Of a stretch of 64,000 bases of DNA, positions 5,230-35,535 are shown piece by piece. The number at the start of each line of letters is the position of its first letter. Position 1 is the stretch's first letter. The translations under genes were made by a program, and so were the position numbers. Below the pieces are notes generated by a model. The model was not told where the DNA came from, searched no databases, and was given only the letters and a program-made list of their open reading frames with translations. Source of the stretch: a virus; the IMG/VR virus record IMGVR_UViG_3300011008_000186. One strand, written 5' to 3'.

Positions 5230-5550
5230 TTAATTACCTCTCAATCTTAACACTCCATCAATATCAATATTGCCCTGAGCTACTGGCGGAACATCCATTA
5301 GAAAATCCTCAAGATCGGTCATGTCATACTTCCACATGTTCTTATCAGTGAAAGCATATTCAAGAAGATCTTTTTCATCATAAAGCTTTCCATGTTTTCC
5401 AAGATCTTTAAGCGGGCACCAATCAGGACGGCCTATTACATTACTGCAAACTTTTTCACAAAGAATACAAATTCCATTAGGATTAAACGTGCATTCAATT
5501 CCGTTATTTGGAACTTCGATACTAACACCTTCAAGTAAAATATCAGTCAT
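5230..5550 (-). CDS. hypothetical protein
   Basis: 106-aa ORF with an SD-like AGGAGA upstream. Cys cluster CILCEKVC...WCP. Confidence 0.6.
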   Translation of the reverse strand: MTDILLEGVSIEVPNNGIECTFNPNGICILCEKVCSNVIGRPDWCPLKDLGKHGKLYDEKDLLEYAFTDKNMWKYDMTDLEDFLMDVPPVAQGNIDIDGVLRLRGN

Positions 5551-6677: not shown

Positions 6678-6882
6678 CCCTCACCCTCCTATTCCATGCT
6701 TTGATGGCTTTTTCGTCGCTTGAATATCCATAACCAACAACAAAAAACTTCGTTGCGGCCGAGCACTCTTTACAACGACATTGACTTGCTGGCTGTGAAC
6801 AACTAATAATATGTTCTAAAACAGCTTCACTACCGCAAAATGGGCAAGGTCTTAATTCATTTATTTTATTGATCATCATCAT
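6670..6882 (-). CDS. Lar-like restriction-alleviation family protein
   Basis: 70 aa. PCPFCGS ... CRCKECSA ... AIKAWNRR matches the CPFCG / C-x2-C / AWNRR signature of Lar-family proteins. Confidence 0.55.
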   Translation of the reverse strand: MMMINKINELRPCPFCGSEAVLEHIISCSQPASQCRCKECSAATKFFVVGYGYSSDEKAIKAWNRRVRDE

Positions 6883-8631: not shown

Positions 8632-8874
8632 TCAATATTTGTATCCGATAAGATACTGATTCCAAGTATAGGCATGACCATTATCTAACAAAAATGTATG
8701 CGGATACTTAGCAACAACTACCCCCGATATAGTTTCTTCCACGATGGTTTTTACCACATCGTTTTTTCTATTGTTTCTTTTTATTTTTGTGTACCAGCCG
8801 GTACGAAAGCTAACGCTATCGCCGACATGAGTGTAATCTTTTAATCTCTGAGCTTCTTCTATGCAGTTATACAT
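8632..8874 (-). CDS. hypothetical protein
   Basis: 80-aa ORF in the operon. Confidence 0.55.
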   Translation of the reverse strand: MYNCIEEAQRLKDYTHVGDSVSFRTGWYTKIKRNNRKNDVVKTIVEETISGVVVAKYPHTFLLDNGHAYTWNQYLIGYKY

Positions 8875-8876
8875 TT

Positions 8877-10043
8877 CTAATTCTCCTTTATAAAATCAAT
8901 TTCATTAAATTTTTTCTTTTCATTTAAGGCTTTGGTTATAGCTAAATCCAATCCTGATCTGCTTTTTAAATGGTAGTAATAAAGATCTGTATATGGCGTG
9001 TTCAATCTATCAATTCTTCCCGAGGCCTGGGCCATAACTTTATACGAATAGTTTTGAGAGTAAAATATAATCGTATCTGTTTTTACGCAGTTCCAACCCT
9101 CGCAACCCGCCGTATATTGCGTCAAATACACCCAAAAATCGCCATCAGGAAGCTCGTTGTGTTTATGACCATTCCACTCAGCTATCTCGTATTCTGGGCC
9201 ATAATCCAAGCCTCTGAGAAGTTCCAGTTCGTAATCGAAATTGTAAAATATAATTACTTTTTCTTTTTCGTGGACGATGTCCAGAACAGTATTGAGCCTA
9301 CTTTCATCACTGTTTACAACTTTTCTCAGAGCGTAACAGAACGCAGCAGCGTTTTGGAAAGGCTCGCCTGTATCAGGATCTTGTCTTGTTTTGATCACGT
9401 CTTTATACAGCATTCGATCGTAATCGACATAAATATCTACATGATGCGGAACAGTATGCCGTTTGAAATCCATATCTACAAGAACCGCTCTTCGCAGACG
9501 AATCAGCCGTCCAGTATTTAAATATCTATCAACTTTTGGATAATTTGTGTAACGACTGTATACGACGTGATCTCTTAAAAATTGACTGCGATTTCTAAAA
9601 AAGCCATTAGCAATAAACACTGGAGCATAATCCAGCCATGTATCTCCTGGCGTAGCTGATAAAATTATCCAGTTATTGTTTTTAGCGATTTTTAGAAACG
9701 ATTTGACCCAAACACCTTTCCCGGTTACCTTATCTTCGTCAAATATAAAAAAAGCTCTTGAAACGTCTGTATATTTTTTAATATTGTTCCAAGAGTCTAT
9801 CTTTATTTTGTTGTCGTAATAATTAGTTTCTGGATCGGTGCTTAAACCAAATACTGCCAGCTCGTAATCCCATTCACAATTGTCACGTTTCTGAGCAGTT
9901 GTAATAATATAAAGATCCTGAGGATTGAACATTGGTCGAAAAGTTCCTATACGATTGCCACCATTTTCCTTAAAGTAGTAATATAACGCGGTTCTTGACT
10001 TTCCAGATCCAACTGTTCCTTTTAAAATACAGCCATTCCGCAT
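8877..10043 (-). CDS. SF2 helicase (DEAD/SNF2-like)
   Basis: Motif I GTVGSGKS, motif II IFDEDK, SAT-like LSATPG and motif VI QASGRIDR. The in-frame upstream codons encode LIEDFLREHQIDAVRK (the helicase Q/Ia-type motif) but contain no ATG/GTG/TTG. The true start may be the ATT at 10088, 7 nt after GAGGTG. Confidence 0.7.
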   Translation of the reverse strand: MRNGCILKGTVGSGKSRTALYYYFKENGGNRIGTFRPMFNPQDLYIITTAQKRDNCEWDYELAVFGLSTDPETNYYDNKIKIDSWNNIKKYTDVSRAFFIFDEDKVTGKGVWVKSFLKIAKNNNWIILSATPGDTWLDYAPVFIANGFFRNRSQFLRDHVVYSRYTNYPKVDRYLNTGRLIRLRRAVLVDMDFKRHTVPHHVDIYVDYDRMLYKDVIKTRQDPDTGEPFQNAAAFCYALRKVVNSDESRLNTVLDIVHEKEKVIIFYNFDYELELLRGLDYGPEYEIAEWNGHKHNELPDGDFWVYLTQYTAGCEGWNCVKTDTIIFYSQNYSYKVMAQASGRIDRLNTPYTDLYYYHLKSRSGLDLAITKALNEKKKFNEIDFIKEN

Positions 10044-20813: not shown

Positions 20814-20844
20814 TCTTCATATAAGCATATTAATTTTTCGCGAA
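20814..20844 (-). promoter_or_regulatory. TTCGCGAA-box promoter-like motif (copy 1 of 10)
   Basis: Minus strand: TTCGCGAAAAATTAATATGCTTATATGAAGA, 54 nt upstream of the ATG at 20760. Confidence 0.5.
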
Positions 20845-22053: not shown

Positions 22054-22084
22054 TCTTATCATAATAGAGGACTAAAATTTCGCG
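22054..22084 (-). promoter_or_regulatory. TTCGCGAA-box promoter-like motif (copy 2)
   Basis: Minus strand: CGCGAAATTTTAGTCCTCTATTATGATAAGA. Confidence 0.5.
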
Positions 22085-22085
22085 G

Positions 22086-22757
22086 CTAATGACAATCCTG
22101 GTAATCCGGTCTCGGCGGCTCCGGATAAGTTAAAATATAATAATACGATCCATCATCTCGAACCACCTTTTGATGCTGAAAGTCTATCCATTTACAAAAT
22201 TCTTTGTCCCAGCAATATACATCTCCTAATGCATTTCTTGGACGATCCTGCTGCAAAGATAAATAAAAATAAAAATCATTAAGATAAACTTTGTCGGACA
22301 ATGCGAATATCCGGTTGATGTCATACTCCGCAGCAAATAAATCCATCAATCGAATCTGAAACCAGCCGGCATTTTCTTCTTCGGATTCTCTTCTAAAATC
22401 TTCAAATATCCATACAAGGTCATCGAGATCTTCATCTATTATGATTTCCTGACGTTCGATCATTTCCTTTAAACCGGATGCAGCAAGTAAACCACCACCA
22501 GCCAAGGTCGACAGTAATGCAGCTTTTTGTTTTCTGTTTAGTACATCAGAAAATATAATAGACGCACCCGTAACACCAAACGATATAGATGTCGGTATGT
22601 AATGTTTCAGAATTTGCTTTTTAGGTTTGCCCGATTCGATATCTGTAAATGCCTTAAGAGTATCATGAATCGCCAAAGCAGTAGTTGTTGCTAAACCCGC
22701 CATGCTGGTTACGGTTAATATCGTCGACAATTTATTATTCATGGTCGTCGTCCTCAT
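22086..22757 (-). CDS. two-TM membrane protein, paralogue family member 3
   Basis: 223 aa. LSTILTVTSMAGLATTTALAI plus a second TM segment. Confidence 0.6.
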   Translation of the reverse strand: MRTTTMNNKLSTILTVTSMAGLATTTALAIHDTLKAFTDIESGKPKKQILKHYIPTSISFGVTGASIIFSDVLNRKQKAALLSTLAGGGLLAASGLKEMIERQEIIIDEDLDDLVWIFEDFRRESEEENAGWFQIRLMDLFAAEYDINRIFALSDKVYLNDFYFYLSLQQDRPRNALGDVYCWDKEFCKWIDFQHQKVVRDDGSYYYILTYPEPPRPDYQDCH

Positions 22758-24583: not shown

Positions 24584-24614
24584 TTTAATTACCTCCTATT
24601 TTTAGACAATAAAA

Positions 24615-24643
24615 AGGAGCGGTTTAAAGTCTCGCTCCAAGAC
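24615..24643 (-). terminator. conserved hairpin element, divergent copy
   Basis: Minus strand: GTCTTGGAGCGAGACTTTAAACCGCTCCTTTTT. The stem GGAGCG/CGCTCC covaries with GAGCA/TGCTC of the other five copies. Confidence 0.5.
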
Positions 24644-24670
24644 TGTTTTAGTGGTTTAAAATATAATTAA

Positions 24671-25068: not shown

Positions 25069-26055
25069 TTATTTCGATTCTTCCAAAATGTTTATTCCGA
25101 TTTTTTCTTTGACTTTTAGCGCAATTTCATTGATCGATTTACGTCCAAGATTCCTAATATTTTGGAGTTGTTCAAGATGAGATTTTCCCGGACGCGAATC
25201 CAAATAGCACAATAGATCGTCAATTGTATGTATCCCTTTCCGGATAAGACAGTTGCGGGATCTTACTGACAGTTCAAGTTCATCGATGGACTCTAAATAT
25301 AAATTTATTTCGTTGACGTCCACATCTTTCGAATTAATTAATTGAGTTTTTCTTTTAATATATTCTTCATACTCTTTTTCAAAAAGCTCAATCTCTTTCT
25401 TTCGCTGACATCCATTATAGCCATATAATATCAATGCGCTACGAGAACTATGACGCATTTTTCGAACAGCTTTGGCAATTATCTGCCGTATTCGCTCTCT
25501 AGTAACATGAAACTTTTTTGCAATTTCATCATACGTCTCATTATTCTGATAGTAGCAAATAATACAATCCCTTTCTCTCTGTGAAAGCATCTGCAGCGCA
25601 TTTGCTAAACCTTGTTCCTGATCGTTAGTAAGCATAGAGTTGCCATTCAAATAATCGCTTCCGTTAAAAATAACATCGAGCAGGTTATAAGGATAAGGAG
25701 CAATAAAACCATCCGGTATTTCAATAGTTTTATTCTTATTCCTTGGAACTTTCTGAGAATAAAGATACTGTTCATATGAATTTCTACGGGCTAAATTGTA
25801 AAAATTAGCAAGTAACATCTTTATATCATGTTCTTCTAATTCGGTCAGGTTCGTTCTTCCTAAAATATAATCTGTCGGAACCATAAAGAAATCGGCCATC
25901 GCCATCAAAGTATTAACAGTCGGAGCTGCGTACATGCCGATGTAATTTTTTAACTGAGTTTCCTTGATTCCTATTTTTCTAGCGAGATCTCTTTGCGAAA
26001 TCTGAGCCAAATCCATTAGTTCTTTTAATTTACTTGAATCCCATTTTTTATTCAT
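25069..26055 (-). CDS. chimeric transcription factor: XRE-HTH + sigma-70 region 4 + RNAP alpha C-terminal-domain-like module
   Basis: 328 aa. Three modules: the N-terminus ISQRDLARKIGIKETQLKNYI (XRE HTH); the middle LSQRERDCIICYYQNNETYDEIAKKFHVTRERIRQIIAKAVRKMR (sigma region 4.2 pattern); and the C-terminus ELELSVRSRNCLIRKGIHTIDDL...NIRNLGRKSINEI, which is nearly the E. coli alpha-CTD pattern [22 protein letters not shown]...NLGKKSLTEI. Confidence 0.7.
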   Translation of the reverse strand: MNKKWDSSKLKELMDLAQISQRDLARKIGIKETQLKNYIGMYAAPTVNTLMAMADFFMVPTDYILGRTNLTELEEHDIKMLLANFYNLARRNSYEQYLYSQKVPRNKNKTIEIPDGFIAPYPYNLLDVIFNGSDYLNGNSMLTNDQEQGLANALQMLSQRERDCIICYYQNNETYDEIAKKFHVTRERIRQIIAKAVRKMRHSSRSALILYGYNGCQRKKEIELFEKEYEEYIKRKTQLINSKDVDVNEINLYLESIDELELSVRSRNCLIRKGIHTIDDLLCYLDSRPGKSHLEQLQNIRNLGRKSINEIALKVKEKIGINILEESK

Positions 26056-26854: not shown

Positions 26855-26898
26855 GTTTCTACTCCTCCTAGTTTGAAATATAATTTAAGAAAAATAAA

Positions 26899-26925
26899 AG
26901 AGCAGTTTAAAGTCTTGCTCAGGAC
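26899..26925 (-). terminator. conserved 27-nt hairpin element (copy)
   Basis: Minus strand: GTCCTGAGCAAGACTTTAAACTGCTCT followed by TTTATTTTT. Confidence 0.5.
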
Positions 26926-26945
26926 TTTTTACAATGTAAGGTTTC

Positions 26946-27092
26946 TTAAAATAGAGCTAAGACACCTACTGTTATTATAATTGTAAATATAGTACCTCCC
27001 ATTATTACCCCAGCTATAGTGCCGCTAGTGAATAATATTACAGCAATAGTTACAAATAATACAAATGCTACAATAAATGCTAAAAATCTCAT
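26946..27092 (-). CDS. 48-aa hydrophobic peptide
   Basis: Below the ORF-track cutoff. GAGGAGG before the ATG. Sequence MRFLAFIVAFVLFVTIAVILFTSGTIAGVIMGGTIFTIIITVGVLALF. Confidence 0.45.
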   Translation of the reverse strand: MRFLAFIVAFVLFVTIAVILFTSGTIAGVIMGGTIFTIIITVGVLALF

Positions 27093-27105
27093 TTCATTCA
27101 CCTCC

Positions 27106-27134
27106 TCGTATTAGGGAGTCAAAATTTCGCGAAA
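27106..27134 (-). promoter_or_regulatory. TTCGCGAA-box promoter-like motif (copy 3)
   Basis: Minus strand: TTTCGCGAAATTTTGACTCCCTAATACGA. Confidence 0.5.
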
Positions 27135-27164
27135 AGAAAAAGAGCCTCTTAGAATCGAGACTCT
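27132..27164 (-). terminator. intrinsic terminator
   Basis: Minus strand: AGAGTCTC GATTCTAA GAGGCTCT followed by TTTTCTTTT. Confidence 0.65.
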
Positions 27165-27188
27165 TCGTCTTAAAATATAATCTTCGAG

Positions 27189-27569
27189 TTACTTCTTTAA
27201 TGGTAAGCTGAAAAGATTTCTTTTCATGGTTTTTCCATATTCAGTTGTATCGATCATACCTGCCGCATTAATCGAATCAGCATGCTTAATCGCAAATGCC
27301 TGTGCACCAACACCGATACCAGTTGTTGCCAATGTTGTCGCTATACTAACTTTAGAAATAACATTTTTGGCTTTCTCAACCTCTAATGCATCTCTTTTGT
27401 CTCTGATTTCCGACAATTCTTTAGCATTACTAATAAAGGTATTAGCGTCATCGGGATCACTGCTATTAGCAGCCTTCTCCAATTGCGCAACCATAAGATC
27501 GTCAATCTGGTTACGAATTTCCTGTTCATGTTTCTTTTTTTCTTTCCTTTCTTTAAACCATCTAAACAT
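27189..27569 (-). CDS. hypothetical protein with C-terminal hydrophobic segment
   Basis: Start moved to the ATG at 27569 (MFRWFKERKE), preceded by AAAGGAGG. The upstream 10 codons lie inside the promoter-like motif. Confidence 0.55.
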   Translation of the reverse strand: MFRWFKERKEKKKHEQEIRNQIDDLMVAQLEKAANSSDPDDANTFISNAKELSEIRDKRDALEVEKAKNVISKVSIATTLATTGIGVGAQAFAIKHADSINAAGMIDTTEYGKTMKRNLFSLPLKK

Positions 27570-27593
27570 ATCGTTACCTCCTTTGATTTTATA

Positions 27594-27623
27594 TTTCATA
27601 ATAGTGCTATAATTTTTCGCGAA
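27594..27623 (-). promoter_or_regulatory. TTCGCGAA-box promoter-like motif (copy 4)
   Basis: Minus strand: TTCGCGAAAAATTATAGCACTATTATGAAA. Confidence 0.5.
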
Positions 27624-27659
27624 TACAGAATATAATAAATTGTTGTCACCTGCGTCGGA

Positions 27660-27869
27660 TTATTCGATCAGACTTTGTTCGGCTTTATCTAAACCATCTA
27701 ACCATAACATAAATTTTCTACAGCATGATGGGCATAAGTCAAGTTCGGACTCGTCGTACTTTGCCAGCTCATCATCGCAGAACCGAGCAACACTCGCGTC
27801 AATAGTGACGACGACCCGATGATAGTCGTCTACTATTCTGCGACATTTGTCACAAAAATGTTTTACCAT
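27660..27869 (-). CDS. zinc-ribbon protein
   Basis: 69 aa starting MVKHFCDKC, with CPSCC. AAGGAGG lies before the ATG at 27869. The longer 169-aa track ORF is a read-through artefact. Confidence 0.55.
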   Translation of the reverse strand: MVKHFCDKCRRIVDDYHRVVVTIDASVARFCDDELAKYDESELDLCPSCCRKFMLWLDGLDKAEQSLIE

Positions 27870-27963
27870 ATTTAATCCTCCTTGTTTGAAAATAGTAATA
27901 CAAAAGCGATAAAACCCAAGTTGCCTCCTAAAAGAAATGCAATTGGTAAATACCACCACGGTA

Positions 27964-28230
27964 TCATAATTCTTCTCCTTTCTCTTCGTAGTATTCATCG
28001 TCTTCAAATACTTTTCTAAAATTAACAGCATGGCGAACGTCAGTAGTTCGTTTACAATCCGGAAAGCATTTACCATCTTCGCATCTCTGCCGATCGCAAA
28101 TATAAGTAACTTTAGGACAAATAGGCATATTTTTAATAACTGTAATAACCCAGGTGGGTACATCGGCATTAATTTTTTCAGATATACTAAGTCTTTTTAA
28201 AAGATCATTTTTATCGATATATTCGTTCAT
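27964..28230 (-). CDS. Cys-rich hypothetical protein
   Basis: 88-aa ORF. Confidence 0.55.
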   Translation of the reverse strand: MNEYIDKNDLLKRLSISEKINADVPTWVITVIKNMPICPKVTYICDRQRCEDGKCFPDCKRTTDVRHAVNFRKVFEDDEYYEEKGEEL

Positions 28231-28257
28231 AATGGTAGTTAACCTTTCATTATTTAT

Positions 28258-28605
28258 TTATCCTCTATCGTTTATCATGGTAGTTCCTATAGCATATGTT
28301 CTTCCGCAATAAGGACACATAAATATATGCTTATTGGCGTTCAGTTCTATTGTTCCTCCACAAGAATTGCATTTGTGTTCCAGAACAGGAACTTCTGATA
28401 AAGATTGCATGAATTCTTCGAATAATGCTTTCTTAACATTATCTGACAAATTAATTTCAAATTCTCCTTGCGAAACGCGTATCTTATTAATGAACCGATG
28501 ATCACTCGAAGTTGCTGGCTCATAAATTTTGGAGTTTCTTCTCCCTCCTGGTGTGGTAATTAACGTATTCGACATATCACTTACATTAATTGTAGCTTGG
28601 TCCAT
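28258..28605 (-). CDS. zinc-ribbon protein
   Basis: 115 aa with CNSCGG ... CPYCG. GGAG ATTATATTT ATG start context. Confidence 0.6.
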   Translation of the reverse strand: MDQATINVSDMSNTLITTPGGRRNSKIYEPATSSDHRFINKIRVSQGEFEINLSDNVKKALFEEFMQSLSEVPVLEHKCNSCGGTIELNANKHIFMCPYCGRTYAIGTTMINDRG

Positions 28606-28637
28606 AAATATAATCTCCTTTCATTATTAAAATGAAA

Positions 28638-28709
28638 CAACGGCAGCAGGAATCGAACCTACATATACTGGGTCAAAGCCAGTCACACTCACCATTGTGC
28701 TATGCCGCT
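28638..28709 (-). tRNA. tRNA-Gln (anticodon UUG)
   Basis: Hand-folded cloverleaf. Acceptor AGCGGCA/TGCCGTT; D stem GCAC/GTGT; anticodon stem ACTGG/CCAGT with loop CTTTGAC; T arm GTAGG-TTCGATT-CCTGC; no encoded CCA. Confidence 0.8.
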
Positions 28710-28713
28710 AAAA

Positions 28714-28740
28714 AGAGCAGTTTAAAGTCTTGCTCAGGAC
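28714..28740 (-). terminator. conserved 27-nt hairpin element (copy)
   Basis: Identical core. Its T-run ends 4 nt before the 5' end of tRNA-Gln. Confidence 0.5.
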
Positions 28741-28749
28741 TACTTCGTA

Positions 28750-29265
28750 TTACTCTATTTTTATTCCGGTTATTTCTTCAAAAATATCCGCATCAAAATT
28801 GGGTAATGCCTTGATTTTTTCTTCATCGCCGTCAATAAGTGTTTTATCATTTATGCGGCAGCATAATTTGCAAAAATTATAATCAAGCGCATTCAGCCAT
28901 TCACTTCTTGTCATGTCATATTCCCGGTTAAATGCTCTCAGCTTCGGTTCGTTCGTATTGAATATTCCACTGTTGTAGTTTCCACTGTTGTAGTTTCCGC
29001 TGTTCCAGTTTCCACTGTTGCAGTTTCCGCTGTTGTGTCTTCCACTGTTCCAGTTTCCGCTGTTCCAGTCTCCACTGTTCCAGTGTCCACTGTTGCGCAT
29101 TCCGCTGTTGTAGTATCCACTATTGTGCATTCCGCTGTTGCAGTTTCCGCTGTTGCAGTTTCCGCTGTTGCCGTTTCCGCTGTTGCAGTTTCCACTGTTG
29201 CGCATTCCGCTGTTGTAGTATCCACTATTGTAGTTTCCACCAAAACTTTGTCCCTTCCTGTTCAA
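28750..29265 (-). CDS. pentapeptide-repeat protein (C-terminal part of a split gene)
   Basis: About 20 consecutive x-N-S-G-x pentapeptides (NSGYY NSGMR NSGNC NSGNG ...), followed by a 70-aa tail. No ATG; the track start is TTG. Confidence 0.6.
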   Translation of the reverse strand: MNRKGQSFGGNYNSGYYNSGMRNSGNCNSGNGNSGNCNSGNCNSGMHNSGYYNSGMRNSGHWNSGDWNSGNWNSGRHNSGNCNSGNWNSGNYNSGNYNSGIFNTNEPKLRAFNREYDMTRSEWLNALDYNFCKLCCRINDKTLIDGDEEKIKALPNFDADIFEEITGIKIE

Positions 29266-29470
29266 TATTCCCTAATGCTTCTATTACGGCAATCTTAGTC
29301 TCGCCGTCCATTGGATAATAGCCGAATACGTCTATTGGGTTTGCGCAAAAGTGGAATCCGCATTTGCACATCTTTAACTTTTCTCCCTCGGCAAGTTCAT
29401 ATGTCTTTCCGATTTCATACTGGAAATCTCTACACGTCCAATCTTTGTTAAATGCCTTATACCCTTTCAT
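29225..29470 (-). CDS. N-terminal part of the same split gene (KAFNKDWTCRDFQYEIGKTYE domain)
   Basis: 81 aa with a good SD. As I recall, this domain is normally fused to pentapeptide repeats. The frames are joined by skipping one T of the T4 run at 29242..29245. Confidence 0.6.
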   Translation of the reverse strand: MKGYKAFNKDWTCRDFQYEIGKTYELAEGEKLKMCKCGFHFCANPIDVFGYYPMDGETKIAVIEALGNIEQEGTKFWWKLQ

Positions 29471-29492
29471 TTTTAATTCCTCCTAATTTTTA

Positions 29493-30332
29493 TTAATTCC
29501 AGCAATAAATGCCTCTTTCTGTGTAAATATAATCGTTCGGAATTGTGCAGCCATTACAATATTTACAATACGTAGGATCCTGATAACACATAAGTAAATA
29601 ATCATATGCGTAATCAGCAATTCCAAGACTATCCATCCAGGTTCCATATTGGGTGTCTATTTCGCCAAAAGCAGAATATAAATTTCCATACCCCCAATAG
29701 TCTTCCGTTGCACGAACCCAACAGCAACATGCGACATAATAGCTGAGCATGCTCTCTCCGTAACCTTCATAGGTTATAAGCTTAAGTGTTCTTTCAGTGT
29801 CTAAGTGACTAATACCATACCGATCAAGCCCAAGTTCAAATACATCATCAGATGAATCGAACACAATTGGCTGATCAGGAATCTCGGCATAAGCTAAAGA
29901 TTCTTGTATATTATTATTACTCGCGATTTTAGGGGTAATATGCGAACATAATTCGTCTATTGCTTGCTGCACTTCATCGAATCGATCACCGAGAGCTATT
30001 TTTCTTTCCTCGCCATTGCCAAAAGATCCTTGAAGCACTGCATCAATGAGTTCGTCAATAGTCATGGAAGAAATATAATCTTCCGTTTCGATTTTTACAT
30101 TAACTTCTACATCGGTTTCTTCCACAAAAGTTTCTTCCGAGTCAGATGACGATTCTGGAAATTCTTCGGCAACGGCGACTCTCGGTATCGAGGTCTCCAA
30201 AATAGTTTCGGTTGTTTCTTGAGTCGTTTCCTCGATTAGTTCATTTGAGTTATTATGCTCACTTATAAATACCAATGTTGCAGCTGAGATAATAACTACA
30301 ATAATACATATTACTGCGTACTTTGCTTTCAT
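29493..30332 (-). CDS. membrane-anchored/secreted protein with CW_7 (Cpl-7-like) cell-wall-binding motif and a Cys/aromatic-rich C-terminal domain
   Basis: 279 aa. N-terminal TM segment. AVLQGSFGNGEERKIALGDRFDEVQQAI fits the CW_7 repeat. The C-terminal YEGYGESMLSYYVACCCWVRA is possibly SleB-like hydrolase (weak). Confidence 0.5.
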   Translation of the reverse strand: MKAKYAVICIIVVIISAATLVFISEHNNSNELIEETTQETTETILETSIPRVAVAEEFPESSSDSEETFVEETDVEVNVKIETEDYISSMTIDELIDAVLQGSFGNGEERKIALGDRFDEVQQAIDELCSHITPKIASNNNIQESLAYAEIPDQPIVFDSSDDVFELGLDRYGISHLDTERTLKLITYEGYGESMLSYYVACCCWVRATEDYWGYGNLYSAFGEIDTQYGTWMDSLGIADYAYDYLLMCYQDPTYCKYCNGCTIPNDYIYTERGIYCWN

Positions 30333-30360
30333 GTTTCATACTCCTTTAAATAAAAATAAA

Positions 30361-30387
30361 AGAGCAGTTTAAAGTCTTGCTCAGGAC
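30361..30387 (-). terminator. conserved 27-nt hairpin element (copy)
   Basis: Identical core, 25 nt upstream of the ATG at 30332. Confidence 0.5.
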
Positions 30388-30446
30388 TTATACAAAGGAG
30401 TACGATTATGGACATACTCCTTCTGATCTAATTAAAAAGAAGAGCC

Positions 30447-30536
30447 TTAGTAGGCCCTTCCCTTATGCATAAACTCGATTATTGCTTTTATAATACCCCG
30501 TACTGTTTCTATTGCTAGTTCAATTCTAATCGTCAT
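30447..30536 (-). CDS. 29-aa peptide cassette
   Basis: MTIRIELAIETVRGIIKAIIEFMHKGRAY. AAAGGAGA lies 7 nt before the ATG. Promoter-like motif upstream, hairpin plus T-run downstream. Confidence 0.35.
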   Translation of the reverse strand: MTIRIELAIETVRGIIKAIIEFMHKGRAY

Positions 30537-30573
30537 GGCGTATTCTCCTTTCTGTAAAAAACATAATCTTGTT

Positions 30574-30606
30574 TCTGCATAATAGGACAACTAAAAATCG
30601 CGAAAA
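30574..30606 (-). promoter_or_regulatory. TTCGCGAA-box promoter-like motif (copy 5, TTTCGCGATT variant)
   Basis: Minus strand: TTTCGCGATTTTTAGTTGTCCTATTATGCAGAA. Confidence 0.45.
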
Positions 30607-30641
30607 AAAAAGAGAGCCCACGCCCTCTTAACTATTTGCAA

Positions 30642-30947
30642 TTAATATTCAATGACGCTTATAGTACCGTCATCGTTAATAACTGTCTGATAGTTAGAGT
30701 TCATAGACTCCTCTTTTTTGCTAACAATTTCTTTTGCTTCTTTCAAGACTTTAAGTCCATTCGTTACTCGTTTTGCGTGCCAAGGCAATAAAACTACCTC
30801 AGCGATCGTTGCTGCTGTTAGAACTGCTGCAGTCTTCTTAACTGCTTTTTCATCTGCAAGCATGTCAAACGTTTCTGCAAGATCTTCTGAGGCCTGTTTA
30901 AAATCATCCTCGGTTACTCCAAAACCTAAATATCTTTTAATGTTCAT
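30642..30947 (-). CDS. hypothetical protein
   Basis: 101-aa ORF with AAAGGAGA upstream. Confidence 0.6.
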   Translation of the reverse strand: MNIKRYLGFGVTEDDFKQASEDLAETFDMLADEKAVKKTAAVLTAATIAEVVLLPWHAKRVTNGLKVLKEAKEIVSKKEESMNSNYQTVINDDGTISVIEY

Positions 30948-30986
30948 AATGTTCTCCTTTCATATATAAGCAAACACTAATAGTTA

Positions 30987-31018
30987 TCTTCATATAAGGA
31001 GACCAAAATTTCGCGAAA
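30987..31018 (-). promoter_or_regulatory. TTCGCGAA-box promoter-like motif (copy 6)
   Basis: Minus strand: TTTCGCGAAATTTTGGTCTCCTTATATGAAGA. Confidence 0.55.
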
Positions 31019-31029
31019 AAAAAAAAAAG

Positions 31030-31056
31030 AGAGCAGTTTAAAGTCTTGCTCAGGAC
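31030..31056 (-). terminator. conserved 27-nt hairpin element (copy)
   Basis: Identical core followed by T14, then the promoter-like motif. Confidence 0.5.
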
Positions 31057-31071
31057 TTTGAATATTATTAA

Positions 31072-31386
31072 TTAACTGATATACTCCGATCTTATTTTCT
31101 GAAGCACAATACTTAGTACTCTGTTCTCTGCCATTGTGTTTAGTTTTCTTGTGACAAATGGTGCCAAAGCAAATTGCAGAGCGTAACCAACATTAAACAT
31201 CGCTTCCTCTTCATCTAAGTTTGATATAAGTTCATCAAAATCAAATGTCTCGTCATCGATCATTTGTTGTATTGCATTCTCTGCAGCTTTTGCTGCAACA
31301 TCATTATCCAATAAAACTTTTATAGCATTAAACGGAGTTCCTGGTAAAAATGTTCTGATAATAAATTTTTTAATGCCCTTATTCAT
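31072..31386 (-). CDS. hypothetical protein
   Basis: 104-aa ORF with GGAGG upstream. Confidence 0.6.
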   Translation of the reverse strand: MNKGIKKFIIRTFLPGTPFNAIKVLLDNDVAAKAAENAIQQMIDDETFDFDELISNLDEEEAMFNVGYALQFALAPFVTRKLNTMAENRVLSIVLQKIRSEYIS

Positions 31387-31415
31387 ATCAATTACCTCCT
31401 AAAATATAATATTAT

Positions 31416-31444
31416 TCTTCATATAAGGAGACTAAAATTTCGCG
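31416..31444 (-). promoter_or_regulatory. TTCGCGAA-box promoter-like motif (copy 7)
   Basis: Minus strand: CGCGAAATTTTAGTCTCCTTATATGAAGA. It overlaps the 3' end of the ATPase ORF. Confidence 0.5.
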
Positions 31445-32082
31445 TTCCGATATCTTCTATCTTTTGTTTTCTTGGTCTTTAAAATATAATCTCGATACTC
31501 TTCGTAATTAGCAAAAGTAATATATTTGCCAACTGCTACATCAAGACATTTTTCACCGCGAGCAAGTTCGTATTCATTTGCTGCCGCAACAATATAAATT
31601 GCAACATTTTTATTAGTATCAATAATGGCATCGAACAATTCTTTGAGCTCGATAATGCCATCAATCGAAAAACCAGAATCTACAGAATCCATTAATATCC
31701 ATATTTCCTCAATACCAATGCGAGCACGAATATTTGTACCTATCTTTTTAGCAAATAAATGTAAATTCTGTTTTATACGTTCGCCTTCTGACGACATTAC
31801 TTGATCGGCGAGAAGATCGTAACGTTGAAGTTGCAAGAATTGCTGCCAATTATTTCCGCTGCCATCATGTAAATTATCATATGCTATATATAAAACATTA
31901 TGCTTCTTACATTGTTCCTCTATATTATTTAATAAAGTAGTTTTGCCAATTCCGTTGCACCCGACAAGAACAGTCAGACCGAGCTCAAATTGTATCTCTC
32001 GTTTATAGGTTGTCGAGAATCCAATATCATAAGGATCCCTCCAAGTTTTTATCAGCCCATTTAATTTTCCAAACGAGTTCAT
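31432..32082 (-). CDS. minimal ABC/SMC-type ATPase
   Basis: 216 aa from the ATG at 32082 (AAAGGAGA upstream). Walker A GCNGIGKTT, signature-like SSEGE, Walker B plus D-loop IWILMDSVDSGFS. Confidence 0.6.
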   Translation of the reverse strand: MNSFGKLNGLIKTWRDPYDIGFSTTYKREIQFELGLTVLVGCNGIGKTTLLNNIEEQCKKHNVLYIAYDNLHDGSGNNWQQFLQLQRYDLLADQVMSSEGERIKQNLHLFAKKIGTNIRARIGIEEIWILMDSVDSGFSIDGIIELKELFDAIIDTNKNVAIYIVAAANEYELARGEKCLDVAVGKYITFANYEEYRDYILKTKKTKDRRYRNAKF

Positions 32083-32160
32083 TATGCGATCTCCTTTCTG
32101 CAAAAAAAAAATAAGAAAAGAAAAAGAGGACATCATTTCTAATGTCCTCAACATTTCTAT

Positions 32161-32436
32161 TTAGTCTACTGAGTGAAACTCGATGTTCGTGAAATGCGGA
32201 TCTGATGACATGTTAAATTCGAATTCAATTCCTGCTGCATCAAACGTCATTGATAATTTATCATCTTTTACCAACATACAATAACTACCACCATCGGGCG
32301 TCATCATTGCTACGCCGTAATTTTTCTCATTATCAATAATGTTAATTACAACATTATTGTATTCGCCGTTACTGTCAATAAATCCAGCTTCAACTAAAGA
32401 TGTTCCTCTTTGTACTGAAATAAAATGTTTCTGCAT
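32161..32436 (-). CDS. hypothetical protein
   Basis: 91 aa from the ATG at 32436 (AAAGGAGG upstream). The longer track ORF reads through the repeat elements. Confidence 0.55.
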   Translation of the reverse strand: MQKHFISVQRGTSLVEAGFIDSNGEYNNVVINIIDNEKNYGVAMMTPDGGSYCMLVKDDKLSMTFDAAGIEFEFNMSSDPHFTNIEFHSVD

Positions 32437-32477
32437 TGTTAAGTTCCTCCTTTTCGTTTTTACAAAATTGTTATATA

Positions 32478-32512
32478 TCTTTTCATATAAGGAGACCAAA
32501 ATTTCGTGAGAA
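32478..32512 (-). promoter_or_regulatory. TTCGCGAA-box promoter-like motif (copy 8, TCACGAA variant)
   Basis: Minus strand: TTCTCACGAAATTTTGGTCTCCTTATATGAAAAGA. Confidence 0.5.
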
Positions 32513-32519
32513 AAACAAA

Positions 32520-32546
32520 AGAGCAGTTTAAAGTCTTGCTCAGGAC
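32520..32546 (-). terminator. conserved 27-nt hairpin element (copy)
   Basis: Identical core. Confidence 0.5.
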
Positions 32547-32564
32547 TATACCGATGGTTATAAT

Positions 32565-32780
32565 TTACCAAATAGACATTAAGGTTTCTTTAATAAAAAG
32601 TGCATCTTCATCGCCGTCTCTTATCGAGTCGTTCAACCATTCAATCGTGCAATCTCTATGTTCATCATCGGTGTTTCTTATAGCATCGATGATATCGGGA
32701 TTACAAGCTTTTAAATAATTAATAAACTCTTCTTGCTCGACATTTTCGCAAATATTGTTTGCACATACAGTAATTTCCAT
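32565..32780 (-). CDS. hypothetical acidic protein
   Basis: 71 aa from the ATG at 32780 (AAAGGAGA upstream). Confidence 0.55.
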   Translation of the reverse strand: MEITVCANNICENVEQEEFINYLKACNPDIIDAIRNTDDEHRDCTIEWLNDSIRDGDEDALFIKETLMSIW

Positions 32781-32818
32781 AATGTTCTCCTTTCCCCATT
32801 GACGCAAATTAATATTCA

Positions 32819-32852
32819 TCTTTTCATATAAGGAAACCAAAATTTCGCGAAA
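32819..32852 (-). promoter_or_regulatory. TTCGCGAA-box promoter-like motif (copy 9)
   Basis: Minus strand: TTTCGCGAAATTTTGGTTTCCTTATATGAAAAGA. Confidence 0.55.
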
Positions 32853-32865
32853 AAAAAATAGAGAG

Positions 32866-33030
32866 AAACAAGAATGGCTGGACCGCCACTTATTATGCAC
32901 TTTAACCGAATATAATTCGTAACTCCTTGCGGATATTTATTTCAAAGCTTCGGCGCCCTTACATCTTGGGGGTGCATTACCTGCCCCGAAGGCCAATTAA
33001 CAGTATACATTCCTGTATACCTGACACATT
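32866..33030 (-). ncRNA. ORF-less cassette: GC-rich candidate small RNA (about 160 nt)
   Basis: Lies between promoter-like motif copy 10 and a T9 run. There is no SD-preceded ORF. Local hairpins include GTATAC-AGGAAT-GTATAC, GCC-TTCGG-GGC, GGGG...CCCC and TCC-GCAA-GGA. It shares ordered blocks with 1..105. Confidence 0.4.
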
Positions 33031-33031
33031 C

Positions 33032-33066
33032 TTGTTCGTATAAGGAGACCAAAATTTCGCGAGAAA
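33032..33066 (-). promoter_or_regulatory. TTCGCGAA-box promoter-like motif (copy 10)
   Basis: Minus strand: TTTCTCGCGAAATTTTGGTCTCCTTATACGAACAA. Confidence 0.5.
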
Positions 33067-33093
33067 AAGAGGAGACCAAATCAGGACTCCTCT
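33063..33093 (-). terminator. intrinsic terminator
   Basis: Minus strand: AGAGGAGTCCTGATTTGGTCTCCTCT followed by TTTTT. Confidence 0.65.
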
Positions 33094-33101
33094 GACTACA
33101 T

Positions 33102-33227
33102 CTACTTTATATAGTCTACTGCTTCTTTTATGCCTTCTTTGATCTCCTCTTTAGCATCTTCAATGCCTTCTCCAATTTCTTTTGCTGCATCTTTTACGCT
33201 ATCAATTATTTCTCTTAAAAATCCCAT
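33102..33227 (-). CDS. 41-aa charged helical peptide
   Basis: MGFLREIIDSVKDAAKEIGEGIEDAKEEIKEGIKEAVDYIK. TAATG overlap with the upstream stop codon. Confidence 0.4.
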   Translation of the reverse strand: MGFLREIIDSVKDAAKEIGEGIEDAKEEIKEGIKEAVDYIK

Positions 33228-33331
33228 TATTTCTTCTCCTCTCGACGTATTAATAGATATAATGTTGCTACTGAATTAACTATGGACCCAATAGATCCAA
33301 CAGTCAATCCGATTAATAAACCTAATAACAT
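33227..33331 (-). CDS. 34-aa single-TM peptide
   Basis: Start moved to the ATG at 33331 (MLLGLLIGLTVGSIGSIV...), preceded by AAAGGAGA. Confidence 0.45.
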   Translation of the reverse strand: MLLGLLIGLTVGSIGSIVNSVATLYLLIRREEKK

Positions 33332-33374
33332 ATCGCTATCTCCTTTCTTAATGGTTTTCATTATAGAGCGAGAA

Positions 33375-33782
33375 TTATTCGCGAATCTTATTGAGTATCC
33401 AGAAAAACTTCCTATATTCTTCATAGTAAACATCTCTCGAAATTGAAATATTCGTATTCATTGACAAATATGTATACGATAGACCGTAAATCACAGCTTT
33501 TAAAATATAATCGCCATCTTCTACTTGTGCCGCTGCCCGTTCGACCATTTTCATTCGTGTCTGGTAAAAATCTCTGGCGACTGCGGTCCGTCCTGTAGGA
33601 TCAGAAAATCCGGTGCCTCTAATGCCAGATCCATCGATTATGCGTTTAGACAATCCGTCCAGACTATAATAAGCACTTTGCCATATTGGATACTGCATAC
33701 AAAAATGCTTCAGCTCATAATATCGATGCTTGGGAATATAATATTTATTTTTGTATGAAATCTCTGGTCTAACCTGATTCAT
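33375..33782 (-). CDS. putative early transcriptional regulator (family uncertain)
   Basis: 135 aa. Second gene of the rightmost leftward early operon. The YYELKHFCMQYPIWQ pattern recalls phage ArpU/RinA-like or sigma-like activators (weak recollection). Confidence 0.35.
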   Translation of the reverse strand: MNQVRPEISYKNKYYIPKHRYYELKHFCMQYPIWQSAYYSLDGLSKRIIDGSGIRGTGFSDPTGRTAVARDFYQTRMKMVERAAAQVEDGDYILKAVIYGLSYTYLSMNTNISISRDVYYEEYRKFFWILNKIRE

Positions 33783-33970
33783 TTAAGCGCCCTCCTGTAT
33801 TTCTCATAAAGCACTGGATCGATGAGGAATTTGCTATTCTGAGCAGTCCCCGACCGCATAGTAAATCTTTCTGCATACTCGCTGTGGAGCATTTTGTCTA
33901 CTTGAGTCTTTGGATACCCTCTTTCGATCATTTCTTTTCTCGTGTACCAAACTTTTTGTTTTCCAATCAT
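33779..33970 (-). CDS. Cro/excisionase-like small DNA-binding protein
   Basis: 63 aa. First gene transcribed divergently from the repressor gene. Basic, with an HTH-like YTRKEMIERGYPKTQVDKML. Confidence 0.5.
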   Translation of the reverse strand: MIGKQKVWYTRKEMIERGYPKTQVDKMLHSEYAERFTMRSGTAQNSKFLIDPVLYEKYRRALK

Positions 33971-33989: not shown

Positions 33990-34019
33990 AATATAATTAA
34001 GTTCAGCTTAATCTGTCAA
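33990..34019 (-). promoter_or_regulatory. leftward early promoter P1 (sigma-A type)
   Basis: Minus strand: TTGACA - 18 nt - TATATT, about 20 nt upstream of the ATG at 33970. Confidence 0.6.
33997..34011. promoter_or_regulatory. operator candidate O1 (TTAAG-N5-CTTAA)
   Basis: Inverted repeat ttaagttcagcttaa inside the P1 spacer. Confidence 0.5.
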
Positions 34020-34146: not shown

Positions 34147-34485
34147 GTGAATAATGATCTATTTTCTAAACGTTTTAATCGGGCTATAAAAAGCAAAAAT
34201 ATAACACAGAAAGAATTAGCTAAATTGACGAATTTATCTCCTGCAGCGATCAATCAGTATGTTAAAGGAATATATCAGCCAAATCGGGAGAATCTTAAAA
34301 AAATAGCAAATGCTCTTGAGGTTGATATTGTATGGCTGCAAGGATACGACAAAGACGAAATACCGCCAAACGGGGAAAAATTTAAAAGAGTAATAGAAAT
34401 TTGCGATCAGTTAAATGCAACAGGGCTTGATCGTCTAATTGAATATGGAAAAGACATTCTCGGAAAATACGGAAAGGAGCAATAA
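34147..34485 (+). CDS. XRE-family (CI-like) repressor
   Basis: 112 aa. ITQKELAKLTNLSPAAINQYVKG is an HTH. Divergent from the Cro-like gene. Confidence 0.75.
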   Translation: MNNDLFSKRFNRAIKSKNITQKELAKLTNLSPAAINQYVKGIYQPNRENLKKIANALEVDIVWLQGYDKDEIPPNGEKFKRVIEICDQLNATGLDRLIEYGKDILGKYGKEQ

Positions 34486-35535
34486 ATGGCCAAATATAGT
34501 AAATATATAACATTAGGGTATAATTCGGACGGAAACCGTGTAAGGAAACGAGCTTACGGCAACACAAAAATCGAATTGGAATCAAATATAGCCAGGTTAA
34601 AAAGAGAATATCTTGAATCGATTGCCAATAATCACGTAACGTTTAAAAAGTATGCACAAACTTGGCTCAACACATATAAAAAAGGGACCTCGCCGAGAAC
34701 TTATGATATGTATGATCAGTTATTGAAGAAGTGCAAAGAGCTCGATCCGTTCGAAATGATGGAGATCAAACGATCCGATATACAAAATCTGATGAATGAT
34801 TTAATAGATAGACCGAATCTGCATAACAAAGTATTAATGTGCCTTAATCAGGTGTTTGAGTCGGCAATAATGGACGAAATCGTTCGAATTAATCCGGTAA
34901 AAGGAATATCAAAGCAAAAAACAATAGTAAAAGAAAAACGTGCGTTGACAACAAACGAGAAAAGAATACTAGCAACTATCAACTTCGAGCCGAAAGAACA
35001 GATGTTTATTGATCTGCTTCTCAATTTTGGATTACGTCCTGGAGAAGCACTTGCGTTAACAAAAGATGACTTCGATTTCGCAAATAATACATTGACCATC
35101 AGCAAGGCGATTACTTTCGTTACTAATGATCCTATATTAAAGGGTACAAAAACCGGGACAGTTAGAACGCTTCCCATCCCGGCTTCATTAGTACCCAAAA
35201 CGAAACAATACCTTGACGAATCTGAAAATATACTTTTTGACATGCAAAAACAAGGAGACTATGGATATATGACAAAAATGGCCTACCGAATATTCAAAAA
35301 TGAAATATTCGAGAAAATTAATATTGCATTAGGAGGTAACAATAATAATGACAAGTTAAACGGTATGACTTTTTATACTTTCCGACATAACAAAGCTACT
35401 GCTTTATACTATGTGGATGGGTTGAGTTTAAAAGCCAAGGCGGAGTATATGGGTCATTCGGTAAGCATGCTTCTTAAAATATATTCTCATATTGACAAGG
35501 AAAAGGAAAATAGCGAAAAATATAATGTGATTTAA
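34486..35535 (+). CDS. int: tyrosine recombinase / phage integrase
   Basis: 349 aa. N-terminal SAM-like core-binding region. Catalytic-domain landmarks GLRPGEALAL, YTFRHNKAT, MGHS and a C-terminal KIYSH (Tyr nucleophile). Confidence 0.85.
   Translation: MAKYSKYITLGYNSDGNRVRKRAYGNTKIELESNIARLKREYLESIANNHVTFKKYAQTWLNTYKKGTSPRTYDMYDQLLKKCKELDPFEMMEIKRSDIQNLMNDLIDRPNLHNKVLMCLNQVFESAIMDEIVRINPVKGISKQKTIVKEKRALTTNEKRILATINFEPKEQMFIDLLLNFGLRPGEALALTKDDFDFANNTLTISKAITFVTNDPILKGTKTGTVRTLPIPASLVPKTKQYLDESENILFDMQKQGDYGYMTKMAYRIFKNEIFEKINIALGGNNNNDKLNGMTFYTFRHNKATALYYVDGLSLKAKAEYMGHSVSMLLKIYSHIDKEKENSEKYNVI

Follow-up and report, generated by a model that had tools for sequence, protein, structure and literature searches.

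A 29-nt promoter-like motif and a 27-nt RNA pseudoknot punctuate a probable early accessory-gene region of a temperate phage

Genes and repeated elements of the early region

The IMG/VR virus record IMGVR_UViG_3300011008_000186 was analysed over a stretch of 64,000 nucleotides (nt), referred to here as the window, which holds between 26.4 and 33.4 kb an array of short genes set apart by two repeated elements: a promoter-like motif of 29 nt, which we call P, and an element of 27 nt, T, which is an RNA pseudoknot. Minus-strand genes for tail and lysis functions occupy the part to the right of 36 kb and code for a 2613-amino-acid (aa) tape-measure-like protein, a tail protein with an fn3 domain and a lysin with a PG_binding domain. 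On the plus strand, a gene for a CI-like repressor (34147–34485, Pfam HTH_3) adjoins the sole integrase gene (34486–35535, domains Phage_int_SAM_3 and Phage_integrase). From 33970 an unbroken minus-strand early region runs leftwards to a DUF5906 replication protein at 12.7–16.9 kb; all genes from 33.4 to 26.4 kb are on the minus strand, and the GC content of the array is uniform (33–41% throughout). The host of the phage probably belongs to the Lachnospiraceae. A megablast search with the region 26.4–34.0 kb gave no match among the INPHARED phages.

A preliminary description of this DNA had placed at 26855–33230 about 14 uniform cassettes of one gene each, all with start and stop signals of their own. 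The repeats are real and far beyond chance, and P as well as T or ordinary terminators recur along the array, but there are about 12 to 13 units and only about eight of them contain a single gene; the multi-gene units comprise the genes for 115, 88, 31 and 69 aa (28605–27660), the CW_7 gene with the DUF7666/pentapeptide frames, and the genes for 34 and 41 aa. Several units lack a terminator, and the unit with the ATPase gene lacks a P copy of its own. The limits also needed revision, as the series of P copies begins upstream, at 33385, and a diverged sixth T copy lies at 24613–24647. The cargo proved to be as varied as described, with a tRNA-Gln, a CW_7 protein, a pentapeptide-repeat protein, Zn-ribbon proteins, a weakly P-loop/ABC-like ATPase and peptides of 48, 34 and 29 aa all present, together with one unit that has no open reading frame (ORF) at about 32870–33035. 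The peptide EILVSLYEK, which had been noticed in two reading frames, is the P motif translated within spurious ORF extensions. Ten terminator-like hairpins were found in 26.0–34.3 kb, compared with 4.4 +/- 2.1 in shuffled sequences. The features are given below in the reading order of the minus strand, with the units numbered.

33990..34019, minus: near-consensus sigma-70-type promoter (TTGACA-18-TATATT), facing the early genes and opposite the genes for the CI-like repressor and integrase
33779..33970, minus: 63-aa cro/excisionase-like gene, the first early gene
33375..33782, minus: gene for a 135-aa all-helical protein (phrog_11237), candidate factor acting on P
33357..33385, minus: P copy TTCGCGAATAATTCTCGCTCTATAATGAA, overlapping the stop codon of the 135-aa gene, an arrangement also found in the relatives L091 and L093 (unit 1)
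33227..33331, minus: ORF for a 34-aa hydrophobic peptide (unit 1)
33102..33227, minus: ORF for a 41-aa charged helical peptide (unit 1)
33063..33093, minus: ordinary terminator hairpin AGAGGAG..CTCCTCT with U-run, recognised by reading the sequence (unit 1)
33035..33063, minus: P copy (unit 2)
32870..33034, minus: ORF-less stretch, closed by an 11-bp helix and then a U-run, fold z-score -1.1 (unit 2)
32823..32851, minus: P copy (unit 3)
32565..32780, minus: 71-aa ORF, no family (unit 3)
32521..32547, minus: T copy, then U-run (unit 3)
32482..32510, minus: P copy (unit 4)
32161..32436, minus: 91-aa ORF (unit 4)
32126..32149, minus: ordinary terminator hairpin with U-run (unit 4)
31432..32082, minus: gene for a 216-aa P-loop ATPase with weak AAA/ABC matches only, without a P copy of its own (unit 5)
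31418..31446, minus: P copy overlapping the stop codon of the ATPase gene (unit 6)
31072..31386, minus: 104-aa ORF (unit 6)
31031..31057, minus: T copy, then a 13-nt U-run (unit 6)
30989..31017, minus: P copy, exact consensus match (unit 7)
30642..30947, minus: 101-aa ORF (unit 7)
30610..30629, minus: ordinary terminator hairpin with U-run (unit 7)
30576..30604, minus: diverged P copy TTCGCGATTTTTAGTTGTCCTATTATGCA (unit 8)
30447..30536, minus: ORF for a 29-aa peptide, 48% identical to a 29-aa ORF of L093; a terminator closes the unit (unit 8)
30362..30388, minus: T copy nested in an 18-bp helix formed by 30336–30353 with 30388–30405 (unit 9)
29493..30332, minus: gene for a 279-aa CW_7 cell-wall-binding protein (unit 9)
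28750..29470, minus: DUF7666 domain (29225–29470) and pentapeptide repeats (28750–29265) in two frames (unit 9)
28715..28741, minus: T copy, 4 nt upstream of the tRNA (unit 9)
28637..28710, minus: tRNA-Gln (UUG) (unit 10)
27660..28605, minus: four genes, for a 115-aa Zn-ribbon, an 88-aa Cys-rich, a 31-aa hydrophobic and a 69-aa Zn-ribbon-like protein (unit 11)
27595..27623, minus: diverged P copy (unit 12)
27189..27599, minus: 136-aa ORF, with homologues in L091 and L093 that are 31–37% identical (unit 12)
27139..27166, minus: ordinary terminator hairpin with U-run (unit 12)
27105..27133, minus: diverged P copy (unit 13)
26946..27092, minus: ORF for a 48-aa hydrophobic peptide (unit 13)
26900..26926, minus: T copy, then U-run (unit 13)
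24613..24647, minus: diverged sixth T copy (AGTC-TT-GGAGCG-A-GACT-TTAAAC-CGCTCC) with compensatory changes in stem 2, between the 111-aa gene and a WDGH-domain gene
22058..22086, minus: P-like copy outside the array
20816..20844, minus: P copy outside the array

The motif P and the 135-aa protein

P has a fixed frame of 29 nt, TTCGCG-N17-TATGAA, in which the ends are conserved and the spacer varies between phages. Five copies of TTCGCGAAATTTTGGTCTCCTTATATGAA (29 nt) were present in the window at three or fewer mismatches, with none expected in shuffled sequences, and a looser bipartite pattern (TTCGCGAW, a fixed gap and a TATGAA-like half) identified nine copies from 33385 down to 27105 as well as one each at 22086 and 20844. 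As these last two precede genes near those for DUF6353 proteins, the P regulon reaches to about 20.8 kb. P was always co-directional with the genes and located 10–60 nt upstream of a ribosome-binding site (RBS) or Shine-Dalgarno (SD) sequence; in the relative L096 it precedes a tRNA gene by 7 nt, and this gene lies behind a terminator with no other promoter to serve it. The idea that the ATG within P starts an upstream ORF was rejected, given that there is no SD sequence and that two copies have no ATG.

In 1.26 Mb of sequence around 80 homologues of the 135-aa gene, the P pattern occurred 121 times on the gene strand and not once on the other strand, and in 1.48 Mb of other phage loci only two matches were found. 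One locus that had been retrieved via T alone (L008) carries P copies together with a homologue of the 135-aa gene. P tracks this gene and not those for the cro-like protein or a 328-aa regulator; the 63-aa cro-like protein is 81–86% identical in L091 and L093 and is missing from most other P-bearing loci. The exact P pattern gave no match in IMG/VR and the JGI metagenomes, and no close relatives were found by that route. The 135-aa family counts 946 database homologues and is present in more than 570 IMG/VR contigs, the sole named source being a Lachnospiraceae bacterium, and the AlphaFold model of the protein has a predicted local distance difference test (pLDDT) score of 83. Because P is confined to one strand and to phages with the 135-aa gene at the head of the operon, we read it as most likely a delayed-early promoter, which would depend on the 135-aa protein. 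Such a regulon would point to a switch from early to delayed-early transcription.

Two further regulator-like proteins are encoded elsewhere in the window. A 328-aa protein just downstream of the array (25069–26055, minus strand) combines a Cro/C1-type helix-turn-helix (HTH), sigma-70 region 4 and the C-terminal domain of the RNA polymerase alpha subunit, an unusual fusion, and a 947-aa protein (868–3711, minus strand) carries a C-terminal HTH of the sigma-70 region 4 or HTH_23 type.

The element T is an H-type pseudoknot

Five exact copies of AGTCCTGAGCAAGACTTTAAACTGCTC (27 nt) are present, all on the minus strand, at 26900, 28715, 30362, 31031 and 32521; there is no other exact copy in the 64 kb, and none is expected in shuffled sequences. 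Its strands follow the order stem 1 5', stem 2 5', stem 1 3', stem 2 3', which is that of an H-type pseudoknot. Stem 1 has the form NNNC/GNNN and stem 2 the form (U)GAGCA/UGCUC(A); they are joined by a loop 1 of 1–2 nt, a single junction A and a loop 3 with the consensus UUAAAC, of which only AAAC is invariant. The stem-1 combinations seen were GTC/GAC, GAC/GTC, ATC/GAT, CAC/GTG, TTC/GAA, AAC/GTT, GGC/GCC, CCC/GGG and TAC/GTA. When the two-stem model was applied to 116 distinct sequences, 97.9% of the positions were paired, and controls in which the model was slid along the sequences collapsed. In stem 1, 95 cells had changed on both sides, compared with 26 in shuffled data (none of 500 shuffles reached 95), and double changes were found in three of the four pairs. 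Stem 2 was 99.5% paired, although the search pattern had fixed this stem for most sequences; a covariance-model search recovered the compensatory variants GGAGCG/CGCUCC (the sixth copy of the window), UAAGCA/UGCUUA, AGGCA/UGCCU and GAUGCA/UGCAUC. T is therefore an H-type RNA pseudoknot in which both stems are supported by covariation, and its small size makes it accessible to direct structural and biochemical work.

Rfam 15 returned nothing but the tRNA in 24–36 kb at E <= 1 and only noise for 81 nt around one T copy at E <= 10, and no account of T turned up when the literature was searched with the sequence itself and by subject. Several other identities were considered and dropped: T is too short for a pistol or hepatitis delta virus-like ribozyme and has no Rfam match; mimicry of an anticodon loop or a T-loop was not upheld; pairing with 16S rRNA was limited to a match of 7 nt; and the T copies are spaced by 669–1815 nt with coding intervals, unlike clustered regularly interspaced short palindromic repeats (CRISPR), which measure 28–37 nt and have spacers of constant length, or mimics of them.

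T is present in viruses of many hosts

In total, 288 distinct copies of T were collected from 198 viral or metagenomic loci. The 22-nt core of T is found exactly in 10 IMG/VR contigs with unrelated flanks, and with three positions freed the pattern occurs in 76 IMG/VR contigs. The 596 Gb of GTDB yielded only 16 matches, located in metagenome-assembled genomes of Alistipes, Saccharibacteria, Nealsonbacteria, Lachnospira, Cloacimonadota, Flavobacterium, Bacteriovoracaceae and others, and at least 120 metagenomic contigs from freshwater, Tara Oceans and rumen samples carry T. Clustering of 2,341 ORFs from T loci revealed no protein family shared across lineages.

T is also found in two small contigs. 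One of them (L057) encodes a protein with a Viral_coat S-domain and a second protein that resembles a GDD-type RNA-dependent RNA polymerase and has the motifs A, B and C in order; in the other (L060), a related large ORF of about 710 aa without a Pfam match is all that is present. The presence of T in contigs of RNA-virus type indicates that it works as RNA. Both contigs contain sub-threshold matches to the lariat-capping ribozyme GIR1, between the two ORFs in L057 (1704–2016, minus strand; 34.3 bits, E 3e-6 in a local search, gathering score 100) and after the large ORF in L060 (574–869, minus strand; 29.2 bits against the gathering score of 100), and in both of them T occupies the site where the DP2.1 hairpin of GIR1 would be. 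GIR1-like matches were confined to these two contigs and missing in seven other loci with similar T flanks; no report of GIR1-type ribozymes in RNA viruses was found in the literature.

A 27-nt RNA that has barely changed across phages of Bacteroidota, Candidate Phyla Radiation, Firmicutes and freshwater or marine hosts, and across RNA viruses, points to a universal constraint. T is a tiny, exceptionally conserved and apparently uncatalogued viral pseudoknot. A separate RNA motif, DUF805b (RF02914, 48.5 bits, above the gathering score), was identified in one T-bearing contig (L024:6776–6811, plus strand).

Position of T and its possible role

In about 93% of cases an ORF upstream of T runs in the same direction as T. 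Measured from the stop codon to the CCU of T, the distance shows a sharp onset at 7–8 nt, with 22 cases at 8 nt, 13 at 9 nt and almost none shorter, a spacing at which T lies just beyond the stretch covered by a ribosome during termination. The elements on the other side of T are distributed asymmetrically. Twelve same-strand tRNAs, including the tRNA-Gln of the window, begin 3–11 nt after T and only one lies within 400 nt upstream; likewise, 12 hammerhead cores were found at most 130 nt downstream of T and one upstream. In contig L006, Rfam supports a hammerhead directly after T (type III, E 4.7e-07, 45.1 bits, just below the gathering score of 48.5). A U-rich tail follows 62 of the 288 copies, mostly in Firmicute-type phages.

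Since each of these recurring partners makes an RNA end a few nt after T, a 3'-terminal protective structure is the simplest common reading, and the link between T and RNA 3'-end formation is suggestive. T would then be a generic viral module of the 3' untranslated region that caps the 3' end of the upstream mRNA against 3'-to-5' decay, with the end after T made by leaky termination at the U-run (in this phage), by RNase P at a tRNA or by hammerhead cleavage. In the window T is always accompanied by a U-run and occupies the same slot as the ordinary terminators, so that leaky termination is plausible in this phage. An intrinsic terminator consists of a stable, G+C-rich hairpin with a U-tract directly behind it, and T is unlikely to be an efficient terminator in general, because the tRNA-Gln lies behind a T copy with five U residues without room for a promoter of its own, most copies have no U-tract and the hairpin is weak. 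Protection of 3' ends is our best guess for the role of T. If this is correct, T would offer synthetic biology a compact, host-independent mRNA stabiliser and would give a rationale for the positions of phage hammerheads and tRNAs. A boxA/nut-like or put-like antiterminator was dropped as a candidate, as a hammerhead directly downstream would sever T from the polymerase.

The spacing behind stop codons also bears on the view that T is a signal directed at the ribosome, for stop readthrough, frameshifting or the coupling of termination to reinitiation. Stem 1 begins about 5 nt after the stop codon, which is the usual spacing of recoding pseudoknots, the commonest loop 3 forms with the preceding U the known slippery heptamer UUUAAAC, and the frameshift pseudoknots of luteovirids have the same size as T. 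We consider a ribosomal signal highly unlikely, however: stop codon usage was ordinary (45 TAA, 15 TGA and 10 TAG) with no conserved motif upstream, downstream genes have their own RBS at a distance of 20–80 nt (11–61 nt in the window), and where a tRNA or ribozyme directly follows T there is no extended ORF.

The strict placement of T upstream of tRNAs and hammerheads could instead mean that it acts as a folding insulator or binds a universal host factor, for example RNase P, S1 or the CCA-adding enzyme, and in this way helps the tRNA, ribozyme or RBS downstream. Its location inside a region resembling a lariat-capping ribozyme in the two RNA-virus contigs fits this idea, and near-invariant loops in hosts of many phyla suggest a universal partner. 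Yet about 85–90% of the T copies have no structured RNA downstream and the T loci have no neighbouring protein family in common, and we regard an insulator or host-factor site as decidedly improbable, albeit less so than a ribosomal signal.

The broadest form of the 3'-end reading is a joint claim that T represents an undescribed, very widespread class of viral RNA, a portable mRNA 3'-end cap that teams with a U-tract, RNase P, a hammerhead or a lariat-capping-like ribozyme, in dsDNA phages with hosts from many bacterial phyla and in tombus/noda-like RNA viruses, and that in this phage it works alongside a private promoter regulon of the 135-aa factor. Taken as a whole, this claim is tentative and less likely than not.

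A model of early transcription

On balance, we think it somewhat more likely than not that the region 26.4–33.4 kb holds the delayed-early accessory genes of a temperate siphophage, divided among about a dozen short transcription units on the minus strand in which P and T have the roles proposed here. The sigma-70 promoter beside the CI/integrase switch would drive the cro-like and 135-aa genes first. The downstream units would then start at P copies served by, or dependent on, the 135-aa protein, acting as a small sigma-like or RinA-like activator, and would end at ordinary hairpin/U-run terminators or at T. With P and T recognised, early regions could be divided into units in a large group of gut phages.

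Several observations count against this model. A scan for the sigma-70 consensus (TTGACA-(16–18)-TATAAT, with 9 or more of the 12 positions matched, among them A2 and T6 of the -10 hexamer) listed none of the P copies; the promoters of the switch, at 34019 and 34053, were listed. Phylogeny confounds the link between P and the 135-aa gene, all P loci being from one phage lineage. No Pfam domain was found in the 135-aa protein, neither profile nor fold comparison gave a PDB relative, and the matches of its model in BFVD are weak (template modelling score about 0.4–0.56, E 0.1–1); their labels are sigma-70 region 4, extracytoplasmic function sigma factor, DUF1492 and transcriptional activator. 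As for T, the stem-2 hairpin alone (-5.1 kcal/mol) is no better than in shuffled sequences, most copies have no tRNA, ribozyme or U-run downstream, and the protective role is drawn from position only. Finally, TTCGCGAA, which forms part of P, is a perfect palindrome, and P could be an operator and not a promoter element.

This last point leads to an alternative in which T is the plain intrinsic terminator of the lineage and P carries an operator, the palindrome TTCGCGAA binding a dimeric repressor or activator in a stoperator-like manner. All six T copies of the window precede a U-run and sit in terminator slots, as this would require. The tRNA-Gln, on the other hand, lies 4 nt after a T copy with five U residues, which leaves no room for a promoter, and that copy must be read through; a U-rich tail is limited to the minority of T copies given above, and the hairpin is weak. 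The operators of the CI/cro switch differ in sequence from the palindrome, and the conserved second half of P at a fixed distance of 17 nt fits a bipartite promoter better than a lone operator. We therefore consider the combination of plain terminator and operator unlikely and retain the model in which P is a promoter and T a 3'-terminal structure.

Related phages and the question of cassette exchange

The preliminary description had taken the array for an exchange platform, in which the main purpose of the repeats is to offer homology, so that related phages can swap single-gene cassettes much as morons or integron cassettes are exchanged. The only near-identical relatives found (L088–L090) have the same protein sequence and are the same phage with an identical array, and no gain or loss of a cassette at a repeat boundary was seen among them. 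The one apparent indel, an insertion of 80 nt in L089, turned out to be a run of N (a scaffold gap), and a patch of 95% identity in the same locus was attributed to this gap and to the pentapeptide repeats, not to cassette variation.

In three more distant relatives (L091, L093 and L096) the 135-aa protein is 58–60% identical. L091 and L093 show the same layout of integrase, CI, cro and 136-aa genes, followed by many small genes; L096 has an integrase and a 138-aa homologue, with no CI- or cro-like gene detected. The punctuation of all three consists of a terminator or a T variant, a U-run and then TTCGCGAAA..TATGAA. The cargo that these relatives of about 60% identity have in common with the window is limited to the 29-aa, 115-aa, 136-aa and 137-aa ORFs and, weakly, the 91-aa ORF, in a partly different order, and most cargo is unshared. 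Relatives at a greater distance have kept P and the ordinary terminators and have no T. Within the genome, modules of promoter, leader and RBS of 70–100 nt are duplicated.

Fixed boundaries around cargo that is mostly different and partly reordered at about 60% identity are what an exchange platform would produce, and this part of the proposal stood; so are the duplication of promoter-leader-RBS modules and of T+P blocks at 67–91% identity and the single stem-1 variant shared by the five main T copies of the window, which suggests copying within the genome. The proposal fares worse in other respects. The near-identical relatives carry the same array, P is strictly one-stranded and tied to one protein family, T covaries as RNA in unrelated viruses including RNA viruses, the GC content is uniform, and neither attC-like sites nor an integron integrase were seen, the absence of integron machinery having already been remarked on. 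The strand-specificity of P and the covariation of T argue for selection on function, not on homology. The notion that the repeats are mere recombination homology finds no support in a motif tied to one strand and one protein family and in a structured RNA shared with unrelated viruses, and an exchange platform appears to us an unlikely main purpose of the array. The repeats are better explained as selected signals than as exchange homology, which narrows the earlier idea: the uniform boundaries here are functional signals. As a by-product, such uniform signals may ease the modular shuffling of cargo.

Comparison with known systems

Integron arrays likewise consist of promoterless-looking short genes split by a repeated element. 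The attC sites of integrons are imperfect palindromes of 57–141 bp, whereas the repeats here, as judged from the letters themselves, are a 27-nt pseudoknot and a 29-nt bipartite motif. Moreover, the covariation of T tolerates G-U pairs and holds on one strand only, in the RNA sense, the sole integrase is a phage integrase beside CI, and most units have their own promoter-like site. On these features the array is most likely not an integron.

The morons that Juhala and colleagues reportedly described in lambdoid phages in 2000 resemble the units in being single accessory genes with a promoter-like site and a terminator, whose content differs between related phages. In the window, P and a hairpin/U-run or T flank about eight single genes, and P is not recognised by the sigma-70 consensus scan; the units fit the moron definition only loosely. 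The sigma-70 promoters of morons are unrelated, and morons stand out by their base composition, whereas in the window the signals are copies of one motif, the GC content is uniform and no clean case of presence or absence was found.

The middle promoters of phage T4 carry the MotA box. Like the early and middle regions of T4, the host-takeover module of SPO1, said to have been described by Stewart and colleagues in 1998, holds many tiny early genes of unknown function in numerous short operons, all of which have their copy of a closely similar phage-specific promoter and several of which have terminators. In both cascades an early phage protein re-targets transcription, and by analogy we propose that the 135-aa protein may do likewise. 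TTCGCG-N17-TATGAA is unrelated to the promoters of SPO1 and T4, however, the phage is temperate, and the candidate factor has 135 aa without a Pfam domain. The array itself is a multi-promoter early/accessory region of a phage, a variant of an already known arrangement.

Three further comparisons concern T. In phage T7, RNase III cuts the polycistronic early transcript and leaves a protective 3' hairpin on the upstream mRNA; T differs in being a compact pseudoknot, and if the analogy holds, the end would come from RNase P, a hammerhead or termination and not from RNase III. Small H-type pseudoknots of viruses and related RNAs (luteovirid frameshift signals, exonuclease-resistant RNAs of plant viruses and the preQ1-I aptamer) share with T a size of about 27–34 nt, two short stems, a loop 1 of 1–2 nt and a loop 3 that is rich in A and might run along the minor groove of stem 1. 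In sequence T has nothing in common with them; it sits after stop codons and before processing sites, and no slippery site or ligand-linked context was found. The start-associated sequences and stoperators of mycobacteriophages are also short, oriented and near-identical intergenic repeats in a gene array. Those repeats are sites at the level of DNA or translation in one phage cluster, whereas T is an RNA structure found across many hosts and P is bipartite.

Observations on individual units

In contig L006, a phage contig of 71 kb, two type III hammerhead matches of 45.1 and 42.3 bits, both just under the gathering score of 48.5, lie about 1.5 kb apart on the minus strand (5236–5292 and 6740–6798), the upstream one beginning 2 nt after a T copy. 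The pair could release or circularise the intervening RNA.

The ORF-less unit of the array (unit 2) gave no Rfam match and may encode a small RNA. A comparable P-driven position in L091 (3289–3400) contains an RNA that resembles a tRNA in its acceptor-type helix and canonical T-arm; an ARAGORN window scan did not call it, and it may likewise be a small RNA gene.

The resemblance of the 216-aa ATPase to defence ATPases is limited to the Walker-A region. In unit 9, the 3' arm of the 18-bp helix around T (30336–30405; -15.6 kcal/mol, z-score -3.1) holds the SD sequence of the CW_7 gene and adjoins its start codon, and the helix may provide a translational control particular to this unit. The pentapeptide repeats of the same unit derive from a 15-nt tandem repeat in 17 copies, in a frame that overlaps the DUF7666 frame. 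L089 has a single 220-aa ORF at this place (8775–9437), which suggests a frameshift, a changed repeat number or an assembly error.

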